Shown piece after piece: positions 1 through 15,362 of a stretch of DNA of 64,000 bases. Numbering within the stretch: the first letter of the stretch is position 1; the number at the start of each line of letters is the position of its first letter. The notes beneath the pieces were generated by a model that saw only the letters and a list, made by a program, of their open reading frames with translations, was not told where the DNA came from and ran no database searches. The position numbers and the translations under genes are program-made. This DNA comes from a virus, in IMG/VR virus record IMGVR_UViG_3300042348_000780; one strand, written 5' to 3'.

Positions 1-69
1 CACAAGTTATCCACAATGGTAATACTATCAACATGGCTAGGGCTTCGCCCTTATAGCCATGTTGATAGT
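1..69. repeat. Repeat unit 1 (truncated by window edge)
   Basis: TTATCCACA 7-15; ACTATCAACATGGCTA-GGGC-TTC-GCCC-TTA-TAGCCATGTTGATAGT 24-69. Confidence 0.95.
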
Positions 70-79
70 TGCAAAGACA

Positions 80-101
80 CCAGACCCCTTTCGGGGTCTG
101 G
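80..101 (-). terminator. Terminator-like hairpin after ORF 123-650
   Basis: Minus strand CCAGACCCC-GAAA-GGGGTCTGG then TGTCTTT (weak U-tract). Confidence 0.6.
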
Positions 102-122
102 CATCCTGCCCAATTTCATTCT

Positions 123-650
123 TTACTGTGATCGTCCACGGACGACGATCCAGATAAGAGCCTGCATTGCCGCAGGTTCCCAACCGTGCATCCGCGCAAC
201 TTCGCGCACGGATTCCGCGAGTTGCAGATATTGCGTCTTATTGACAATCTTCGATGGATGCTGAGCCGCTTTCAGCATCCACGTATCAATCACTACGGCT
301 TCCCCGTCGCCTGAAATTGCACGGGCGAAGTTATTCGTCTTCAAGCCGCGCAATGCACGGAAGCCTTCAGACCTTGCGGCTTCCGCGTTACGAATGGATG
401 TCCGAAGACACTTGACACTTTCGCCTGACACGAACGAACGTGCCAGTTGTACATTGCGGCTCCACGTCACACGTGGAGAGAATGCGGAAATCACACTTGC
501 GGCCTGCTCATATGAGAGCGAATTGTCGAGAAGTTTGAGTTTCGCGCATTCGGTATGAGCCAACTCATACCAACGACAGGCTTCCAGTTGCTGTCCGAGG
601 TTCGATGAAGATGCGAGATTGTGAAAGAGAGTTGTGGGGGAAGTAGCCAT
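123..650 (-). CDS. Phage protein, possibly HhH-GPD DNA glycosylase-like fold
   Basis: 175 aa with WY..AH, SAFSP..W..N, G.KT..F, VVIDTWM and MQALIW motifs; own promoter directly upstream. Confidence 0.6.
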   Translation of the reverse strand: MATSPTTLFHNLASSSNLGQQLEACRWYELAHTECAKLKLLDNSLSYEQAASVISAFSPRVTWSRNVQLARSFVSGESVKCLRTSIRNAEAARSEGFRALRGLKTNNFARAISGDGEAVVIDTWMLKAAQHPSKIVNKTQYLQLAESVREVARMHGWEPAAMQALIWIVVRGRSQ

Positions 651-656
651 ACGGGG

Positions 657-685
657 AATATATCAGAATCCGAAGCGGCTTGCAA
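657..685 (-). promoter_or_regulatory. sigma70-type promoter, leaderless
   Basis: TTGCAA-17-TATATT-6 nt-ATG(650). Confidence 0.75.
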
Positions 686-706
686 GTTGGTCGAAAGAAT
701 GGAGAG

Positions 707-780
707 TTATCCACAAGTTATCCACAATGGTAATACTATCAACATTTATAGGGCTTCGCCCTTATATAAATGTTGATAGT
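707..780. repeat. Repeat unit 2
   Basis: TTATCCACA at 707 and 718; ACTATCAACATTTATA-GGGC-TTC-GCCC-TTA-TATAAATGTTGATAGT 735-780. Confidence 0.95.
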
Positions 781-791
781 TACGCAAAGGT

Positions 792-817
792 CCACCCACG
801 GCTCCTACCGTGGGTGG
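792..817 (-). terminator. Terminator-like hairpin
   Basis: CCACCCACGG/CCGTGGGTGG 10-bp stem just past the stop at 843. Confidence 0.55.
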
Positions 818-842
818 TGTTTGGTTTTTGTTTGGAGTTTGT

Positions 843-1190
843 TTACCTACGTCGCGGTTCGATCATGGTGAGTCGGCACTCACCGTTCATATCTTTCCAG
901 CATCGGAAACGATGCGGGAAGCGATTGTTGAGCATTGGATCGGAGATCCACAATCGGCATCCGTCCCATTGAGGATTGGAACGGAACATACGCAGAGCCA
1001 ATACTGCGGGACTCTCATTCGAGAGAACTTTCAGCGTATTCACACATTCACCGAACGGTGAGCCGTCAAGAATGGCGATGGTATATTCGTCATTCTTGCC
1101 GTTCATATTGAGCGAGATACCGAACATACGAGAGAAGAGGTTGCGGACGGAGGATGCCTTGCGGCCCGATTGAATGGTGGAAGTGACCAT
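843..1190 (-). CDS. Hypothetical cassette protein (115 aa; start re-called to ATG 1190)
   Basis: The track start at 1229 lies upstream of the promoter; ATG 1190 is 6 nt after the -10 box. Confidence 0.7.
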   Translation of the reverse strand: MVTSTIQSGRKASSVRNLFSRMFGISLNMNGKNDEYTIAILDGSPFGECVNTLKVLSNESPAVLALRMFRSNPQWDGCRLWISDPMLNNRFPHRFRCWKDMNGECRLTMIEPRRR

Positions 1191-1196
1191 GCAGAC

Positions 1197-1224
1197 AGTA
1201 TAGCGTCCGTCCCGAAGAATGCAA
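1197..1224 (-). promoter_or_regulatory. sigma70-type promoter, leaderless
   Basis: TTGCAT-16-TATACT-6 nt-ATG(1190). Confidence 0.7.
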
Positions 1225-1239
1225 GCCACTTTCCAAGAT

Positions 1240-1309
1240 TCTGGATAGATTGTGGATAAGTCAAACTATCAACATTGGGGGCCAAAGGCCCAATACCAAT
1301 GTTGATAGT
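1240..1309. repeat. Repeat unit 3 (DnaA boxes in reverse orientation)
   Basis: TCTGGATAG 1240 and TGTGGATAA 1251; ACTATCAACATTGG-GGGCC-AAA-GGCCC-AATA-CCAATGTTGATAGT 1265-1309. Confidence 0.9.
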
Positions 1310-1321
1310 ATTTCAAAGAAT

Positions 1322-1350
1322 AACCAGAGAGTCACATAGACTCTCTGGTT
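1322..1350 (-). terminator. Terminator-like hairpin
   Basis: AACCAGAGAGTC/GACTCTCTGGTT 12-bp stem followed by ATTCTTT on the minus strand. Confidence 0.65.
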
Positions 1351-1372
1351 GATTGTCACGTTGTGAGAGACT

Positions 1373-1573
1373 TCAGAAGTCTCTCAACCGTCTTGCGAGT
1401 TCCTTCTCCTCCTCTGTCATTCGGGAGAAGTCCAATACCCAATGACCCCTCGAATTGAGGCAAGTTGGTAACAACAACTTGAACTCTGCCGCCAATTCGG
1501 GACGGCTCGTCTTGCGACAATTTCGGTCGGTAACTGCGGACGGGGGAAGTACGTTGTTGGAGTTGGTATCCAT
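1373..1573 (-). CDS. Hypothetical cassette protein (66 aa, MDTNSNNV...; start re-called)
   Basis: ATG 1573 lies 6 nt after TATAGT; the longer track ORF would run through the repeat element. Confidence 0.65.
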   Translation of the reverse strand: MDTNSNNVLPPSAVTDRNCRKTSRPELAAEFKLLLPTCLNSRGHWVLDFSRMTEEEKELARRLRDF

Positions 1574-1579
1574 GCCGTA

Positions 1580-1607
1580 ACTATAGCGACTGTCCTGAAG
1601 AGTGCAA
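1580..1607 (-). promoter_or_regulatory. sigma70-type promoter, leaderless
   Basis: TTGCAC-16-TATAGT-6 nt-ATG(1573). Confidence 0.7.
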
Positions 1608-1632
1608 GAGGGTAGGGAGAATCTAGCGAGAT

Positions 1633-1703
1633 TGTGGGTACATTGTGGATATCTCAAACTATCAACAACGGTTAACGGGCAAAGCCCTACCGTTGTTGAT
1701 AGT
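1633..1703. repeat. Repeat unit 4 (DnaA-like boxes reversed, bulge on left arm)
   Basis: TGTGGGTAC 1633, TGTGGATAT 1644; ACTATCAACAACGGT-TAAC-GGGC-AAA-GCCC-T-ACCGTTGTTGATAGT 1658-1703. Confidence 0.9.
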
Positions 1704-1716
1704 ATTTGAAAGCTTT

Positions 1717-1732
1717 GGGAGCCGAAGCTCCC
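1717..1732 (-). terminator. Terminator-like cUUCGg hairpin
   Basis: Minus strand GGGAGC-TTCG-GCTCCC just after the stop at 1743. Confidence 0.6.
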
Positions 1733-1742
1733 TATGTTTGTG

Positions 1743-2024
1743 TTATTTACATATTTGTTTCGCGTGAATAAACAACTCGTCCAATTGATTCTGCAACTGG
1801 TCGAGTTGTGGCCAACGAAGTGCAACTCTGTCGCGGGAAATTTCCCGACGAACCATAGGGTATACTTTCACCAATGCAATAAACAAACTTCGCTTACATT
1901 CAAGCGAAGTTTCGGCAAAGATGTCCTTCATGAGAATGATGCAAACTCTTGACATATCAAGAGTTTGTTCGGGATCCATTGACTCAATACGTGACGAGAG
2001 AGATGAGAGAGTGGAGTTGTGCAT
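1743..2024 (-). CDS. Hypothetical cassette protein (93 aa)
   Basis: ORF fills the interval between promoter and terminator. Confidence 0.75.
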   Translation of the reverse strand: MHNSTLSSLSSRIESMDPEQTLDMSRVCIILMKDIFAETSLECKRSLFIALVKVYPMVRREISRDRVALRWPQLDQLQNQLDELFIHAKQICK

Positions 2025-2030
2025 GATATG

Positions 2031-2059
2031 ACTCTACCCGATTGTCTTCAGACTGTCAA
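2031..2059 (-). promoter_or_regulatory. sigma70-type promoter, leaderless
   Basis: TTGACA-17-TAGAGT-6 nt-ATG(2024). Confidence 0.75.
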
Positions 2060-2070
2060 GCGACCTAGAG

Positions 2071-2143
2071 TTATCCACAGGGTATCCACAAGGCCAAACT
2101 ATCAACAGGGCTAGGGCTTCGCCCTTATAGCCCTGTTGATAGT
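2071..2143. repeat. Repeat unit 5
   Basis: TTATCCACA 2071, GTATCCACA 2082; ACTATCAACAGGGCTA-GGGC-TTC-GCCC-TTA-TAGCCCTGTTGATAGT 2098-2143. Confidence 0.95.
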
Positions 2144-2176
2144 ATTTGAAAGCCCCGTCGCATGGGGCAGAATTGT

Positions 2177-2500
2177 TTATTTTTCTCCAAGACACATCTT
2201 GTGATATTGTACAAGATATTGTTTGAATGATTCAGAGAATGATTCTGAATTGTTAATCGGGATACACAATCCCAATTGTTTGATAATTCTGTCCATTCGT
2301 GAGATATAGGGTTCAATTTCCTTGAATCCACCATTGTCGATACAATGTTTGGACGTATTGACACAATCAATCAATGCGGCTAACAGATCAATTGTGCGAT
2401 CGTGAGATGATTCTAACAACGAAACTGAATCCAAAGCAGATGACCACATTGTTTGGTTGGCCGTTCGAATTTCGGTGATGCGAGTCTGGAAGTCAATCAT
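2177..2500 (-). CDS. Hypothetical cassette protein (107 aa)
   Basis: ORF with GAAAGG SD-like motif; hairpin 2152-2168 after the stop. Confidence 0.75.
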   Translation of the reverse strand: MIDFQTRITEIRTANQTMWSSALDSVSLLESSHDRTIDLLAALIDCVNTSKHCIDNGGFKEIEPYISRMDRIIKQLGLCIPINNSESFSESFKQYLVQYHKMCLGEK

Positions 2501-2553
2501 TGTTAGCCTTTCGTTAGGGTATCTGTCTCGGTGCGAAGATGCCCGATTCTAGT

Positions 2554-2582
2554 ACCCTACCCGATTCTCTTGAGGGTGTCAA
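2554..2582 (-). promoter_or_regulatory. sigma70-type promoter
   Basis: TTGACA-17-TAGGGT, same layout at 3096-3124 and 3470-3498. Confidence 0.6.
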
Positions 2583-2593
2583 GCGACCTAGAG

Positions 2594-2666
2594 TTATCCA
2601 CAGGATATCCACAAGGCCAAACTATCAACATTGCTAGGCCAAAGGCCGTATAGCAATGTTGATAGT
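2594..2666. repeat. Repeat unit 6
   Basis: TTATCCACA 2594, ATATCCACA 2605; ACTATCAACATTGCTA-GGCC-AAA-GGCC-GTA-TAGCAATGTTGATAGT 2621-2666. Confidence 0.95.
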
Positions 2667-2702
2667 ATTTGAAAGCCCCGTCGCATGGGGCAAGGTTCTT
2701 GC

Positions 2703-3023
2703 TTATTCTTCGAGGTCGAAATAATCCATACCAGAGTCAGTATGTCGAACCTTATACCATTCAAGGCCCTTCGAATATTGACGAATTTGATCTACCGTCA
2801 ATTCGACACCGCGCAATTCGCGCGGAATATCCAACTCCAATGTAGCAACGGCATTCGCGTAGGCGGCAACGTGCAGAGGCACGTTGCCGATAATATTGCG
2901 ACTACGCGCATCCTCTTTCGAGATATGCTCGACTACCGTTCCCGTGATTCCGTATCTTTCCCGAAGATACGTAACAAGGGCGGCATGTCGAGTCACAATG
3001 AGAGTTTCGATGTAGTAGGACAT
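2703..3023 (-). CDS. Csx16 (Cas_VVA1548)-like protein, candidate cOA ring nuclease / anti-CRISPR
   Basis: VTRH near the N-terminus, IIGNVPLHVAA and LDIPRELRGVELT match the Csx16 pattern (vTRH...vIGtLPvhlAA...ldlp.elRG.EL). Confidence 0.75.
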   Translation of the reverse strand: MSYYIETLIVTRHAALVTYLRERYGITGTVVEHISKEDARSRNIIGNVPLHVAAYANAVATLELDIPRELRGVELTVDQIRQYSKGLEWYKVRHTDSGMDYFDLEE

Positions 3024-3095
3024 TTGTTAGCCTTCCGTTAGGATCTGTCGTGGGCCGAATTGCCCGTGCATCGGACGAAGTTGCCCGATTCTAGT

Positions 3096-3124
3096 ACCCT
3101 ACCCGATTGTCTTCAGACTGTCAA
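3096..3124 (-). promoter_or_regulatory. sigma70-type promoter
   Basis: TTGACA-17-TAGGGT. Confidence 0.6.
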
Positions 3125-3135
3125 GCGACCTAGAG

Positions 3136-3207
3136 TTATCCACAAGGTATCCACAAGGCCAAACTATCAACATTGGGGGCCAAAGGCCCAATACCAATGT
3201 TGATAGT
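3136..3207. repeat. Repeat unit 7
   Basis: TTATCCACA 3136, GTATCCACA 3147; palindrome 3163-3207 identical to that of unit 3. Confidence 0.95.
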
Positions 3208-3220
3208 ATTTGAAAGGCTT

Positions 3221-3238
3221 GGGAGGCCGAAGCCTCCC
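3221..3238 (-). terminator. Terminator-like cUUCGg hairpin
   Basis: Minus strand GGGAGGC-TTCG-GCCTCCC. Confidence 0.6.
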
Positions 3239-3245
3239 GTGAAGT

Positions 3246-3395
3246 TTAAGTGTATCCATCCATCGATCTAGTGATGCTCTCAATATTAGCAGCATCTTCA
3301 TCGATTTGTCTGGCAATTTCCTCTTCACAATCTTCATATGGGTCGAAGTCATCGCCCCACTCGTCGTCCGTCTCTGAACGTTTCTTCGGTTTCAT
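3246..3395 (-). CDS. Small acidic protein (49 aa), not in ORF track
   Basis: Manual translation MKPKKRSETDDEWGDDFDPYEDCEEEIARQIDEDAANIESITRSMDGYT*; GAAAGG upstream; stop falls just before the terminator hairpin. Confidence 0.7.
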   Translation of the reverse strand: MKPKKRSETDDEWGDDFDPYEDCEEEIARQIDEDAANIESITRSMDGYT

Positions 3396-3469
3396 GGTAG
3401 CCTAGCCTTTCGTTCGGTCTGAAGTGGGCCGAATTGCCCTTGCATCGGACGGAGTTACCCGATTCTAGT

Positions 3470-3498
3470 ACCCTACCCGATTCTATTGAGAGTGTCAA
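3470..3498 (-). promoter_or_regulatory. sigma70-type promoter
   Basis: TTGACA-17-TAGGGT. Confidence 0.6.
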
Positions 3499-3509
3499 GC
3501 GACCTAGAG

Positions 3510-3544
3510 TTATCCACAGGATATCCACATCGTACTATCAACAT
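3510..3544. repeat. Repeat unit 8 (terminal half-site)
   Basis: TTATCCACA 3510, ATATCCACA 3521, ACTATCAACAT 3534-3544 with no complementary arm. Confidence 0.9.
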
Positions 3545-3793
3545 CCAGCCTCGTTATATGGTCACGTTTCTAAACCACGTCACAGGACAGTGAAATTGAC
3601 AAAAGGGAACCCATCCCCTTTAGCCGCTTGCGAGTCCCAAAACCCTAACACACCCAAAATTCCTATTAAATTATAATGGGACTCCCAGACCTCAAAAATT
3701 TTTTCTGGGAAAAAAATGCTCTATTAGCGTTTTCTAAATATATTAAATGAAGCATTTAGCCTGATCTCCTACATTATAGAAAGGAAAATAAAT

Positions 3794-4159
3794 ATGACAC
3801 TCAAAGAATACTATAAGAATAGACTACAAGAAGCTGTTTTGTCGAATAAATTACGCCGAACTTTAGGCGCAGTCGGCCTAGCGTCTAGCCTTTTCGCTGG
3901 AGGAGGCGCAGCGGTCGGTGTGGCAGCTCCGTATATAAGAGATGCAAAAACTACTTTTCATAAAGCAATAGGAAATCCTGTTGGTGGAGAAGAAGTTAGT
4001 CGGGCAAGGGCAGAAGCCGCTAATAAGGTGGGTCTTGTTGGATCAACCGTTCCCGCTGGTAAAAGAGCCTTATATGGAGCAGGACTAGGTGTTGGACTTC
4101 TTGGTGCTGGTATGGCTGCTGAAGTCTTAAAAGGAAGAATAAAGGGAAGAAGAAAATAA
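3794..4159 (+). CDS. Putative internal virion protein with two Gly-rich hydrophobic segments
   Basis: MTLKEYYKNRLQE N-terminus; AGGA SD. Confidence 0.6.
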   Translation: MTLKEYYKNRLQEAVLSNKLRRTLGAVGLASSLFAGGGAAVGVAAPYIRDAKTTFHKAIGNPVGGEEVSRARAEAANKVGLVGSTVPAGKRALYGAGLGVGLLGAGMAAEVLKGRIKGRRK

Positions 4160-11585: not shown

Positions 11586-11907
11586 GCGAGAGTTCACTCA
11601 GAAAAATAAAAAGGGTTGTGTTGTTTGTCCTTCATGTAATACAACCAAAAGACGTTGGGAATCTAGAAAAGAATTAGTTGAAATGATGGGTGGTAAGTGT
11701 ACTAAGTGTGGATACTCTGGGAATCCAGCCACTCTTCAATTTCATCATTTAGATCCAAAAGAAAAGAAATATTCTTTGTACTCACGCAATCTTCTTCGTG
11801 CTGATCGTTATGAAGAAGTAAAGAAATGTGTAATTCTTTGTGCTAATTGTCATACTGTAGAACACACGAATCAAGAGTTACTTAAAAAGTTTGGTGTGAT
11901 CCCTTGA
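11563..11907 (+). CDS. HNH endonuclease with Zn-finger N-terminus
   Basis: GGKC.KCGY...LQFHH.DP.EK ... KC.ILCANCH..EH. Confidence 0.85.
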   Translation: MCKCKYCEREFTQKNKKGCVVCPSCNTTKRRWESRKELVEMMGGKCTKCGYSGNPATLQFHHLDPKEKKYSLYSRNLLRADRYEEVKKCVILCANCHTVEHTNQELLKKFGVIP

Positions 11908-11932
11908 CAAAGAAGAACCAATAGGGTACAAT
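11904..11932 (+). promoter_or_regulatory. sigma70 promoter for tRNA-Lys
   Basis: TTGACA-17-TACAAT. Confidence 0.75.
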
Positions 11933-11949
11933 CAAGCCTCACAAGTAAA

Positions 11950-12022
11950 GCCCCTATAACTCAGTTGGTAGAGTAGAAAACTTTTAATTTTAAGGTCGTA
12001 GGTTCGATCCCTACTGGGGGCA
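11950..12022 (+). tRNA. tRNA-Lys(UUU)
   Basis: GCCCCTA/TGGGGGC acceptor, ACTC/GAGT D stem, CT-TTT-AA loop, GTAGG-TTCGATC-CCTAC T arm; CCA not encoded. Confidence 0.9.
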
Positions 12023-12090
12023 TTCAATCGTTAGTCATCATGTAAGACTCGCCATGGTGATCAAAACAAGAGTCGTTTAGGAGATTTATT

Positions 12091-12372
12091 ATGGCAAATG
12101 TTATTTCGAAGAAGCGTCGTGTTATTAATTATTTGGCAGCTGGTCGTGGTATTACCGCAGCAGAGGCTCGTAGTCGATTTGGTGTAAAGAACCTTCGTGC
12201 TATGATGAGCGACATTCGTGTTCTCGTTGAGCGTTACGGTAATTGGGAAGTTGAAACTGAAGAGACTCGTTCTGGCAGCACACGCTACTTCATGCGCGAT
12301 ACTCACACAGGTCGTCGTAAGTTTAAGTTTGACGTTGATGGATCGCGTACTGCAATTGCAGCATCTCGCTAA
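12091..12372 (+). CDS. Winged helix-turn-helix protein
   Basis: VINYL..G.GITAAEA...FGV.NLRA..SDIR; AGGAG SD. Confidence 0.65.
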   Translation: MANVISKKRRVINYLAAGRGITAAEARSRFGVKNLRAMMSDIRVLVERYGNWEVETEETRSGSTRYFMRDTHTGRRKFKFDVDGSRTAIAASR

Positions 12373-12384
12373 TAATTAATTTTT

Positions 12385-12418
12385 GGGGAGAGACAATTAA
12401 TTTTGTCTCTTTCTTTTT
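12385..12418 (+). terminator. Rho-independent terminator
   Basis: GAGAGACAA/TTGTCTCTT stem plus T-rich tail. Confidence 0.6.
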
Positions 12419-12784: not shown

Positions 12785-13038
12785 GCCAGTATCGACTCCA
12801 TATTGATATTCCAATGCCATTCACTGAAGAAGAGGCTATGAAGGCTTCTGAACTGATTGTAGGGGCAATTAATAATGCCATTCTAATTGATCGTTGTAAT
12901 ATTACAGAGATTAATTATCGTCTTGGTCATGATGATGATCGTCAGAAAAGTAATTATTTTATCAAGAATGAAAATGGACATGTGAATAATAAAAAGTGTA
13001 AGATCCACTTGACAAAGAATGAAAGTATGGTAGAATAA
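12781..13038 (+). CDS. Hypothetical protein
   Basis: 85-aa ORF with ATGA overlap. Confidence 0.6.
   Translation: MSQYRLHIDIPMPFTEEEAMKASELIVGAINNAILIDRCNITEINYRLGHDDDRQKSNYFIKNENGHVNNKKCKIHLTKNESMVE
13009..13036 (+). promoter_or_regulatory. sigma70 promoter for tRNA-Ile
   Basis: TTGACA-16-TAGAAT with TG extension. Confidence 0.7.
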
Positions 13039-13045
13039 TACTAAC

Positions 13046-13120
13046 GCGCCGTGGGAGGTCTTGGTTATCTCAGTTCGACTTATAATCGAATAAGACTTGG
13101 TTCGATTCCAAGACGGCGTA
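13046..13120 (+). tRNA. tRNA-Ile(UAU)
   Basis: GCGCCGT/ACGGCGT acceptor, TTCGA/TCGAA stem with CT-TAT-AA loop, CTTGG-TTCGATT-CCAAG T arm; atypical D arm. Confidence 0.8.
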
Positions 13121-13122
13121 TT

Positions 13123-13308
13123 ATGGCAAAACGTAAATGGGATTCAATTGATGAAGAAGCGGAGAGGCAAGGCTCCGCTTTTAAAATTCAACTAACACAA
13201 ATTTCACGTGTTGGTTGGGGTAAGAAAATTATCAAACAACGTAAAATGCAAAAAGATGCTGATAAACGCATTGAATGTAAACTGATTAAAGAATCATACT
13301 CAAGATAA
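13123..13308 (+). CDS. Hypothetical basic protein (start re-called after the tRNA)
   Basis: MAKRKWDSIDEE...; the track ORF from 13051 overlaps the tRNA. Confidence 0.55.
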   Translation: MAKRKWDSIDEEAERQGSAFKIQLTQISRVGWGKKIIKQRKMQKDADKRIECKLIKESYSR

Positions 13309-13318
13309 ATATTTTACA

Positions 13319-13678
13319 ATGACAATTGAAGATATTATTAAAAATTATAAAGTTGTTGGTAGAAATAAAACCAAAACAGGTGAAGATAGATGTTTCTTTC
13401 TAAATGAGATAGATAATATCTTATATTGTTTTGGTCCTTCCAATTATGTTCGTCAAGCTTTTGATGAAAAAGATAAAGAAAAAATTTTAATAATTGAATA
13501 TGAAAATGGTCCATACCTACAAGTAGGTGATAATGTATATGGTGAAAAAATAATTCAAAAATTTGAATTATTTACTGATCATGGTATACCAATTACTGCA
13601 ATGCATCTTGCAGATAAACTACAACTTCAAACAAAGAAAAATAAACGAAAGAAAAAAGGGAATACAGGCGTAGTATAA
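13319..13678 (+). CDS. Hypothetical protein
   Basis: 119-aa ORF; GATAAATA upstream. Confidence 0.65.
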   Translation: MTIEDIIKNYKVVGRNKTKTGEDRCFFLNEIDNILYCFGPSNYVRQAFDEKDKEKILIIEYENGPYLQVGDNVYGEKIIQKFELFTDHGIPITAMHLADKLQLQTKKNKRKKKGNTGVV

Positions 13679-13808
13679 TATTACTATTCTGGTTTATATT
13701 TCATCGAGTCTCATTACGCTACATGTGTAAAACAGGACGAAATCTTAGGCCCGTCATAGGTTTGAATAGCAATATATATACTAGTAGGTTCAATTCCTAC
13801 TATTCCCA
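13658..13808 (+). ncRNA. tRNA-like structured ncRNA (acceptor stem + T arm + long stem)
   Basis: GGGAATA/TATTCCC-A acceptor; GTAGG-TTCAATT-CCTAC T arm; TAGTATA/TATACTA, ATATT/AATAT and CTATTC/GAATAG stacked helices. Confidence 0.7.
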
Positions 13809-13810
13809 TT

Positions 13811-14035
13811 ATGAAATCTAAAAATAAATTATTTTATACTAAAATCGAAGTCGATGGTAGATGTTTAGATTTACTTTTTACTGAAAAAGAAGTAATACGT
13901 GCATCAAATAGAACTATTGATCCAGTAAATTCAGATTTCATTCCTGATAATGTAAATACCTGTTGGCCAATTGAGCAACCGCCAAAATGCTCATTTTGGG
14001 ATAAAATTCTTGGCAATTGTAAATGTAAGGAATAA
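13811..14035 (+). CDS. Hypothetical protein
   Basis: 74-aa ORF. Confidence 0.55.
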   Translation: MKSKNKLFYTKIEVDGRCLDLLFTEKEVIRASNRTIDPVNSDFIPDNVNTCWPIEQPPKCSFWDKILGNCKCKE

Positions 14036-14037
14036 TT

Positions 14038-14367
14038 ATGAGTGATAATATTAAAATTTTGCGTTTGAATTCTGGTGAAGAAATTATTTGTTCATACACA
14101 GTCACAGAGACTAGTGAAAATATTTTTTATAATTTGATGAGTCCTGCGATTCTTATTCCAGGACCAGAAGGTAAACTTATGTTTGCTCGTTGGCTTCCAT
14201 ATGTAAAGCAAGAAAATGGAATCTCCATTCCAAAGAGTACAGTTGTATTCGAAGCAGAACCTATGGATGACCTTAAGGATCACTACACATCAGTAGTTGT
14301 GAATAATATCTTCATTCCCCAAAAGAAGATTGCTGGTCCTGGAGATCTCAAGTTAGCACTTGACTAA
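14038..14367 (+). CDS. Conserved T4-like phage protein (Sm-like fold)
   Basis: IKILRLNSGEEII...P...FARWLPY pattern common in T4-like phages. Confidence 0.65.
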   Translation: MSDNIKILRLNSGEEIICSYTVTETSENIFYNLMSPAILIPGPEGKLMFARWLPYVKQENGISIPKSTVVFEAEPMDDLKDHYTSVVVNNIFIPQKKIAGPGDLKLALD

Positions 14368-14829
14368 TTATATTTGAAATAAACCATGATCAAATTCCCA
14401 ATGACAATTTGGGCATAAAGCAATTAAATTTTGATCATGGTTTATTTCACTCAATAAAGTATCCTCTGGAAAAGAACTTATTGGTTTTATATGACAAGCT
14501 TCAATATGTTTATCATAACCACAATGTTCACATTTGAAAGATGATTTAATTTTATTTGTTGCTCTTGCTCTTGCTCTAACTAAAGCGAATGCAGATGATT
14601 TATGACCTTTATCATAAATTGCTTCTTTTAATGTTAAATCTTTAGCAGAATTAAATTCTATAAAACATTCTTTACAGTAAGTTCTACTAGATTGTATTTT
14701 ATTATTACATGTTTTGCATAATTTTTTAACTTTTCTTTTTGGATTTTTATTAGAAATTTTAGCAGAACAGGATCTTGAGCAAAATTTTGGGTTATTGGTA
14801 ATATTATTACAGTAAAGACATCTTGACAT
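14368..14829 (-). CDS. HNH endonuclease with Zn-finger N-terminus
   Basis: FCSRSC; CEHCGYDKHIEACHIKPI...NLIALCPNCHWEFD. Confidence 0.9.
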   Translation of the reverse strand: MSRCLYCNNITNNPKFCSRSCSAKISNKNPKRKVKKLCKTCNNKIQSSRTYCKECFIEFNSAKDLTLKEAIYDKGHKSSAFALVRARARATNKIKSSFKCEHCGYDKHIEACHIKPISSFPEDTLLSEINHDQNLIALCPNCHWEFDHGLFQI

Positions 14830-14850
14830 AATTGAACCTTTGTGTATAAT
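14823..14850 (+). promoter_or_regulatory. sigma70 promoter for tRNA-Arg
   Basis: TTGACA-16-TATAAT. Confidence 0.8.
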
Positions 14851-14874
14851 ATATAGATAAGTAGTTGTTTCGAT

Positions 14875-14949
14875 GCGGGTGTATCGGCTCTGCCTTCTAA
14901 GCAGAAGTACCGTAATTGGATGATGTAGGTTCGATCCCTATCACCCGTG
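14875..14949 (+). tRNA. Atypical tRNA-Arg(UCU) lacking a D arm
   Basis: GCGGGTG/CACCCGT-G acceptor; TCTGC-CT-TCT-AA-GCAGA; GTAGG-TTCGATC-CCTAT; only 7 nt between acceptor and anticodon stems. Confidence 0.7.
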
Positions 14950-14966
14950 CTTTAAAAGGAGAAAAT

Positions 14967-15314
14967 ATGCGTAATTCAAGTATTGTTCTATCTATCGTGG
15001 CATTGGCCGTTTTAGTTTTTAGTTTTATTGCTTCATATTACACAAAGAATACACAAGTAATACCTATAGGAAGTCTTGTTTGTGTAGGGCTTATTGCTGT
15101 CAGCACACTTCTTTGTTGTCTATCTACGCCGTCAGAGGCTAAGAAGCGTGATGAAGCTTATTCATTCAATGAAGAAATGCGATCTGTATGGGAACGATTC
15201 CGATTCATTGAAGATCAAATGAATGATTTGAATACTGATTCTAATCGTTTTTATGATCAGCAGATTCAAGAAGTACATAATCGTCTAGATAGTCTAGACT
15301 CAAAACGAAAGTAA
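14967..15314 (+). CDS. Membrane protein with two TM helices and coiled-coil tail (start re-called)
   Basis: AGGAGA SD before ATG 14967; two hydrophobic segments. Confidence 0.7.
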   Translation: MRNSSIVLSIVALAVLVFSFIASYYTKNTQVIPIGSLVCVGLIAVSTLLCCLSTPSEAKKRDEAYSFNEEMRSVWERFRFIEDQMNDLNTDSNRFYDQQIQEVHNRLDSLDSKRK

Positions 15315-15330
15315 ATTAATTTACTTTTCG

Positions 15331-15362
15331 AAACCCAGTTGAGAAATCAACTGGGTTTTTTT
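15331..15362 (+). terminator. Rho-independent terminator
   Basis: AAACCCAGTTGA-GAAA-TCAACTGGGTTT plus T run. Confidence 0.9.

Follow-up and report, generated by a model that had tools for sequence, protein, structure and literature searches.

A tRNA-like RNA gene in a phage operon

The window analysed here, a 64,000-nucleotide (nt) stretch of viral DNA (IMG/VR record IMGVR_UViG_3300042348_000780), has a G+C content of ~30% and carries genes for gp32, a baseplate wedge subunit, and tail proteins, which identify the phage as T4-type. Positions 13658-13808 of its plus strand form a 151-nt RNA gene, hereafter the element, which is non-coding and keeps the upper half of a tRNA, with the anticodon arm replaced. 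The element lies in an early-type operon with a transcript start at ~13043, comprising tRNA-Ile, open reading frame (ORF) 61, ORF119, the element, ORF74, and ORF109. A preliminary description had outlined a 151-nt RNA with the acceptor stem GGGAATA/TATTCCC, discriminator A, and a canonical T arm, all of which the sequence and the fold confirm; the fold also returns the 6-nt linker that it had put in place of the D arm and the interrupted helix of ~18 base pairs (bp) that it had put in place of the anticodon arm. The parts of the element, read 5' to 3', are:

13658-13664, plus strand: 5' strand of the acceptor stem, GGGAAUA; element positions 1-7 pair with 144-150 (13801-13807).
13665-13670, plus strand: 6-nt linker CAGGCG at the position of the D arm, unpaired in the fold; its GG at 13667-13668 is invariant.
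13671-13689, plus strand: 5' strand of the long helix P2; element positions 14-32 pair with 107-126 (13764-13783).
13690-13763, plus strand: apical domain, ~74 nt in the window, carrying UACGC, CUURGG, and GUCAUAG; the pairing within it is partly resolved.
13714-13730, plus strand: hairpin P3 (UUACGC-UACAU-GUGUAA) with the invariant UACGC on its 5' strand, found in the minimum free energy (MFE) fold and in the RNAalifold consensus.
13744-13749, plus strand: CUUAGG (CUURGG in the family), with invariant columns C87, U88, U89, G91, and G92 and A or G at position 90.
13753-13759, plus strand: GUCAUAG, an unpaired strand that joins the apical domain to P2, invariant in every homolog.
13764-13783, plus strand: 3' strand of P2, partner of 13671-13689.
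13784-13800, plus strand: T arm, GUAGG-UUCAAUU-CCUAC; the loop UUCRANU is conserved in homologs.
13801-13808, plus strand: 3' strand of the acceptor stem, UAUUCCC, followed by the discriminator A13808; CCA is not encoded.

In the ViennaRNA fold, the MFE structure coincides with the centroid, and one fold dominates. Its energy is -38.7 kcal/mol, compared with -26.5 +/- 3.2 kcal/mol for dinucleotide shuffles (z = -3.8; 0 of 200 shuffles). P2 directly abuts the T arm, without a variable region. Homologs have A or G as the discriminator, and CCA is encoded neither by the element nor by any of the phage tRNAs.

Homologs and covariation

ORF119, immediately upstream, has 15 relatives with 55-97% identity, and each contig with enough DNA carries the element directly downstream of the relative. 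Homologs of the element are present in all syntenic loci, at flanking-protein identities as low as 55%. A motif scan across viral and metagenome contigs added to these; one member (L040; loci are designated by L and a number) came from a loose pattern scan filtered by a covariance model, and another (L153) was recovered independently through the downstream 109-aa ORF. The loose pattern, GTCATAG...GGTTC, mostly returned ordinary tRNAs whose acceptor and U8-A9-G10 spell GUCAUAG, with L040 as the sole member, and three candidates from exact-motif scans (L005, L006, and L163) were discarded as chance matches within coding DNA. In total, the family comprises 19 distinct sequences of 130-155 nt, ~15 of them clearly different, on contigs of related uncultured phages. 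A blastn search with the element and its flanking sequence as query gave zero matches among 50,697 GenBank phage records. The family pattern had 0 matches in 185,579 bacterial and archaeal genomes, so a host-borne counterpart was not found there.

We built a covariance model (R1) from the fold of the window's element, realigned all members to it, and ran the tests on the 19 distinct rows. Standard pairs fill 90.4% of cells, compared with 39-50% when partners are slid by 1-3 columns. Both sides have changed in 28 of 47 pairs (6-12 in the slid controls), and the covariation score is 0.332 (0.055-0.081 for slid partners); the pairing proposed in the preliminary description is thus conserved among homologs. 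None of 500 column shuffles matched any observed pairing measure. Because the R1-guided alignment was fitted to R1, it leans towards the model; an unguided MAFFT/RNAalifold run gave the same acceptor and T-arm pairs.

The acceptor stem is paired in 93% of cells, and four of its seven pairs carry compensatory changes (G1-C/A-U, A4-U/G-C, A5-U/G-C, and U6-A/G-C). The T stem is paired in 98.9% of cells, with both sides changed in four of five pairs. P2 reaches 88.8%, and 14 of its 18 model pairs have changed on both sides; its sequence is rewritten between clades (GUGUGU/ACAUAC vs AGUAUA/UAUACU) while its length stays at ~18 bp. P3 lacks double changes, its pairs C-G and G-U/G-C being kept in all sequences. 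The element is a real, conserved, structured RNA gene, and its conservation exceeds chance.

Invariance extends to unpaired positions: G10 and G11 of the linker, UACGC at 58-62, C87, U88, U89, G91, G92, and GUCAUAG at 96-102, the last being invariant even in homologs retrieved through flanking proteins alone. Between the acceptor and the long helix, the linker is unpaired and measures 6-7 nt in all homologs. Its GG, together with the intact T loop, fits a retained tRNA elbow contact, in which the two guanines may act like G18-G19 of a tRNA and touch the T loop.

Comparison with tRNA and tmRNA models

The element shares with tRNAs (Rfam RF00005) a 7-bp acceptor with discriminator and a T arm with a 5-bp stem and a 7-nt UUCRANU loop. 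It lacks a D arm, in place of which stands the unpaired linker, and an anticodon arm with a 7-nt loop. ARAGORN called nothing at the element in its intron (-i), -mt, tmRNA (-m), or lowered-threshold modes, and Rfam at gathering thresholds reported no family there. At E<=10, Rfam returned only noise at the element and no tRNA: the tmRNA T loop scored 8.4 bits, and Plastid-ycf2 matched the T arm on its minus strand. An ordinary intron-containing tRNA, which the preliminary description had considered as an alternative, was thus not recognised by either program.

That description had also likened the element to tmRNA. The likeness holds in outline (acceptor, T arm, no anticodon arm, and a long closing helix) and does not extend to membership: the Rfam tmRNA model (RF00023) scores 8.4 bits, on the T arm only, vs a threshold of 47. 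The reported absence of a G3-U70 pair proved general, with G3-C70 in 19/19 distinct sequences, and the reported absence of a tag ORF agrees with the lack of a conserved reading frame among homologs. Judged from its sequence, the element is not a tmRNA.

The apical domain

The apical domain ranges from 45 to 80 nt in homologs, and its small UACGC hairpin is supported in all sequences. The partner of CUURGG differs between clades. The best fold for the window's clade joins it to GGUUUA, which lies 55 nt upstream; for the short variants, a local hairpin of 4-5 bp with a 9-nt loop ending in UCUUR fits CUURGG better. L153 fits only the model with the upstream partner, and L026 and L029 fit only the local hairpin. 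We rejected GUCAUAG and AUCUUAG as mimics of anticodon loops, as their flanking stems are not conserved, and a hammerhead-type core, prompted by GUC and GAAA, as GAAA is not conserved and CUGANGA is absent.

Operon context and gene junctions

The features around the element that bear on its expression are:

13009-13036, plus strand: sigma-70-type promoter TTGACA-16-TAGAAT, with 11/12 consensus matches, 9 nt before tRNA-Ile(UAU).
13046-13120, plus strand: tRNA-Ile(UAU), the first gene of the operon, called by ARAGORN and found at the same position in homologous loci.
13123-13308, plus strand: ORF61 (61 aa), with its ATG 2 nt after the tRNA-Ile discriminator and no Shine-Dalgarno sequence.
13319-13678, plus strand: ORF119, which runs into the 5' end of the element with its last 7 codons; its stop codon at 13676-13678 corresponds to element positions 19-21.
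13811-14035, plus strand: ORF74, a conserved Cys-rich small protein, with its ATG 2 nt after the discriminator of the element and no Shine-Dalgarno sequence.

Near-consensus sigma-70 promoters (12/12, 11/12, and 11/12 matches) are placed 9-24 nt before three tRNA genes. No comparable promoter occurs between the one at 13009-13036 and the element, which therefore sits in mid-operon without a promoter of its own; a separate RNA must be cut out of the mRNA. Within the window, ARAGORN calls only tRNA-Lys(UUU) at 11950 and tRNA-Ile(UAU) at 13046, and Rfam adds a tRNA at 14875. The placement of the element within a tRNA cluster, as first described, is therefore loosely right: the three tRNA genes are spread among small ORFs and have their own promoters. 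Terminator-like hairpins lie at 12385-12414 and 15330-15359. The three tRNA genes (Lys-UUU, Ile-UAU, and Arg-UCU) each head a small operon of unknown ORFs behind their own promoter, giving the units 11904-12414, 13009-14367, and 14823-15359, two of which end in strong terminator hairpins.

At the tRNA-Ile/ORF61 junction, the discriminator A is followed by UU-AUG, an arrangement kept in five divergent relatives (L003, L008, L011, L014, and L026). In L010, L012, and L153, which lack ORF61, the tRNA is followed after 5-17 nt by the start of the ORF119 homolog, which likewise has no ribosome-binding site. These observations suggest that tRNA 3' processing makes the 5' ends of these mRNAs. Shine-Dalgarno sequences are present at neighbouring genes (AAGGAA before 14038 and AAGGAG before 14967).

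The overlap with the end of the upstream ORF, recorded in the preliminary description, falls within the first 21 nt of the element, where the ORF119 tail GNTGVV-stop is translated RNA sequence. ORF119 enters the element by 6-8 codons in three clades, including the window's (GNTGVV-stop, GSIGLVDN-stop, and GDMGLIV-stop); in L014 the overlapping bases are read in a different frame, and in four clades ORF119 stops short of the element. The varied frames and ends argue that the overlap is dictated by the RNA and not by the protein. In the window's clade, an RNase P-type cut at 13658 would strip the ORF119 message of its stop codon.

Downstream, the distance from the discriminator to the ORF74 ATG is 2-6 nt in all homologs that keep ORF74. 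With 24 invariant residues, four of them cysteines, ORF74 is a real gene; its predicted structure (pLDDT 78) gave no fold match. In L016, ORF74 is deleted and the element is kept intact.

Other features of the region concern its neighbours. Rfam detects tRNA-Arg(UCU) at 14875-14949 with 35.5 bits; ARAGORN misses it there and in L003, L008, and L011 and calls it at the same place in L010, L014, and L153, so the version in the window's clade seems aberrant. Between ORF109 and the tRNA-Arg promoter, a gene for an HNH_2 endonuclease of 153 aa occupies 14368-14829 on the minus strand. L008 and L011 have no gene at this spot, and L024 has an HNH_2 gene elsewhere in the same region; these genes look like mobile homing-type insertions. 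At one end of the window, positions 1-4000 have 46.7% G+C vs ~30% in the remainder.

Related RNAs

The preliminary description had drawn a parallel with the stable non-tRNA species of T4, and this parallel is apt. T4 RNAC (species 1, the product of rnaC) and the element are both encoded in the tRNA region of a T4-type phage, are co-transcribed with tRNAs, and measure ~140-150 nt; both combine a 7-bp acceptor-type stem, a short GG linker, a non-tRNA body, and a canonical T arm, and both lack a D arm. In the rnaC fold, the T arm reads CCGGG-UUCGAAU-CCCGG, the 7-bp acceptor contains two U-U mismatches, and the linker is AGG; phages Moon and Kosakonia 305 supply covariation in the acceptor (A3-U70/G3-C70) and in the T stem (G-C/U-A). 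The gene is present in 740 phage records. Three copies, T4 rnaC itself (L007:2909-3047, minus strand), L147, and L148, share the invariant hairpin loop region AGCGUCAACUA, and the record annotation reads only "small, stable RNA". The functions of T4 RNAC and RNAD are unknown (PMC3014915, PMC9697503). However, rnaC has no blastn match to the element, and R1 gives it 21.8 bits, the level of an ordinary tRNA. Between linker and T arm, rnaC forms two side-by-side hairpins, whereas the element forms one ~18-bp helix with an apical domain; the conserved motifs also differ, and the gene of the element sits between protein genes. Shared design and setting, combined with different topology and no shared sequence, make the element an RNA of the same kind as rnaC, not of the same family.

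tRNA-like processing signals at transcript boundaries are known from the MALAT1 mascRNA and from mitochondrial tRNA punctuation. Likewise, the plant mitochondrial t-elements (PMC1920247) resemble the element in placing a tRNA-like fold exactly at a cistron boundary. All three are minimal shells, whereas the element adds a strongly conserved domain and its cleavage is only predicted. YrlA and other bacterial and phage Y RNAs share with the element a tRNA-like T arm and elbow, a long helix, and the lack of an anticodon. In YrlA, however, the Ro-binding stem contains both RNA ends, the tRNA-like module is internal, and its acceptor-like stem is closed, whereas the ends of the element form its acceptor stem. 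Rfam showed no match to Y RNA or any other family at the element, and no Ro60-like gene was found among the neighbours examined.

The tRNA-like domain (TLD) of tmRNA with helix 2, and the TLD-only gene of phage DS6A, are alike to the element in having an acceptor and T arm, no anticodon arm, a short GG loop, and a long helix; DS6A provides a phage-borne precedent without a tag (PMC4131195). Compared with tmRNA, the element has G3-C70, no tag frame, no model match, a much shorter linker, and a body of ~75 nt without a predicted series of pseudoknots. Engineered tRNA scaffolds embody the principle that we propose for the element, in that an RNA replaces the anticodon arm and the cell processes and stabilises it (PMC3401473, PMC3753655). 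They exploit recognition by the tRNA-processing enzymes to obtain stable RNAs in E. coli (PMC3401473, PMC3753655), where they are processed and stable (PMC3401473). These scaffolds are artificial and keep the D arm, whereas the element is natural and lacks it.

On an unrelated viral contig of 185 kb, L107:5490-5606 (minus strand) encodes a 117-nt tRNA-like RNA that scores 30.6 bits with R1 and has a z of -3.6. It pairs an acceptor GGGGAGG/CCUCCCC and a T arm GCAGG-UUCGAUU-CCUGU with a non-tRNA body, and is another anticodon-less tRNA shell.

A probable tRNA scaffold for an apical domain

On balance, the element is probably a tRNA-scaffolded stable RNA, excised by tRNA-processing enzymes, with the apical domain as its working part. 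What RNase P, the nucleases that form tRNA 3' ends, and the CCA-adding enzyme read is the elbow and the helix of stacked acceptor and T arm, not the anticodon. By these substrate rules, the tRNA shell would serve both as an excision signal and as a stabiliser. RNase P would take the acceptor/T-arm minihelix as its substrate and cut before G13658, the endonuclease or exonuclease route to tRNA 3' ends would cut after A13808, and CCA would be added to the excised RNA, as the phage tRNAs, none of which encodes it, also require. The helix of conserved length would hold out the apical domain, which would carry the function. Most likely this domain binds a host or phage protein; an RNA partner is less likely, as the conserved apical bases are unpaired and a complementary target was not found in the window. 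Excision would also separate the ORF119 and ORF74 messages, leaving the latter with a leader of 2-6 nt and, in the window's clade and some others, the former without its stop codon.

Several observations weigh against this reading. The family has been seen only in a narrow clade of uncultured phages. The two pairings of CUURGG are mutually exclusive; each suits part of the clades, and in sequences this rich in U neither one scores above the shuffled controls. The window shows no excess of complements to the conserved motifs, and no ligand or target was found. The flanking genes provide no functional hint either: ORF119 and ORF74 match no Pfam or PHROG family and lack neighbours in the atlas.

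Some of the same data could be explained by a pure punctuation or translation element, in which the fold would only direct cutting of the polycistronic RNA and free a near-leaderless ORF74 mRNA, the released RNA being functionless. In its favour, the ORF74 start codon lacks a Shine-Dalgarno sequence and stands 2-6 nt past the discriminator wherever ORF74 is kept; the true tRNA-Ile has the same junction, the element has no promoter of its own, and t-elements shape mRNA ends in plant mitochondria (PMC1920247). Yet for this purpose the shell alone would suffice, and it is the apical domain that holds the most invariant bases of the RNA. Together with the conserved length of P2 (~18 bp) and the intact element that L016 kept after losing ORF74, this makes a role in punctuation alone unlikely. 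A second group of explanations gives the shell itself a target. As a trans-translation decoy made of a tRNA-like domain only, the element would mimic the tmRNA TLD and helix 2, titrate host SmpB or another elbow binder, and thereby block tagging and decay of products from cleaved, stop-less phage messages. Its outline of acceptor, short GG loop, long helix, and T arm is that of the TLD, and an RNase P cut at 13658 would leave a stop-less ORF119 mRNA in the window's clade. Mycobacteriophage DS6A encodes little beyond a tmRNA TLD, and a TLD-only molecule inhibits tmRNA whether chargeable or not, perhaps by titrating SmpB (PMC4131195). However, sequence similarity to tmRNA is limited to the T loop (8.4 bits vs the threshold of 47), the linker has 6-7 nt vs ~14 nt in the D-loop analogue of tmRNA, and the third acceptor pair is G3-C70 in all sequences. 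Moreover, a stop-less message is not general in the family, since ORF119 terminates ahead of the element in several clades, and we consider this decoy quite unlikely. Similarly small credence goes to a decoy or sponge for another enzyme that reads the acceptor/T-arm elbow, such as a tRNA-targeting defence nuclease or toxin, a CCA-adding or modifying enzyme, or a synthetase. The conserved shell with its GG/T-loop elbow would suit this role, as would the location of its gene among phage tRNAs, which are of a type believed to stand in for those of the host. Against it, no 7-nt anticodon-type hairpin is conserved, which makes a decoy for anticodon nucleases unlikely. Nor can one recognise the identity elements of an anticodon-independent synthetase, since G3-U70 is absent and P2, the only helix from linker to T arm, is not a variable arm beside an anticodon arm; finally, a plain decoy needs no invariant apical domain.

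Two further explanations are scarcely credible. A working miniature tmRNA would add a short tag, ...ILGxS, before the invariant UAG, and in most homologs the frame closed by the UAG within GUCAUAG does read ...ILG(P/S/L)S-stop. This frame, however, follows trivially from the invariant bases. A 1-nt deletion in L011 shifts it (NLRPS-stop), its sole variable codon switches between P, S, and L and varies as RNA, and the UACGC-to-UAG distance, counted modulo 3, assumes every possible value. In addition, G3-U70 is absent, ARAGORN and Rfam make no call, and the tag would lack the usual hydrophobic end. The frameshift, the variable codon, and the variable phase led us to reject the reading as a tag ORF. 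A decaying tRNA pseudogene, or an ordinary tRNA with an intron or insertion, would account for the tRNA-like ends and for a site among tRNA genes, but ARAGORN finds no tRNA with introns allowed, and neither a D arm nor an anticodon arm can be recovered. Purifying selection and compensatory changes across ~15 variants rule out decay.

The scaffold reading that we favour can be extended into a more speculative scheme, itself rather improbable, in which tRNAs and tRNA-like modules form an RNA-cutting code. Host tRNA-processing enzymes would cut the early operon of this phage clade after tRNA-Ile and on both sides of the element to yield near-leaderless ORF61 and ORF74 mRNAs. The excised RNA would act in trans, its invariant apical domain engaging a host factor able to recognise the shape of a tRNA; it might, for example, silence SmpB/tmRNA and so spare the stop-less upstream message, made by the same cut, from tagging.

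Implications

T4 stable RNAs C and D have been without an assigned function for fifty years. The element is a new example of these known but unexplained tRNA-shelled stable RNAs of T4-type phages. Should it do no more than direct processing, or be peculiar to a handful of uncultured phages, its interest would be modest. As an unrelated family with the same tRNA-shell design, strong covariation, and a small, sharply conserved apical domain, it offers a compact object for study. In addition, a tRNA and its look-alike each stand 2-6 nt before a start codon that lacks a ribosome-binding site, suggesting that messages of these phages are shaped by tRNA processing.

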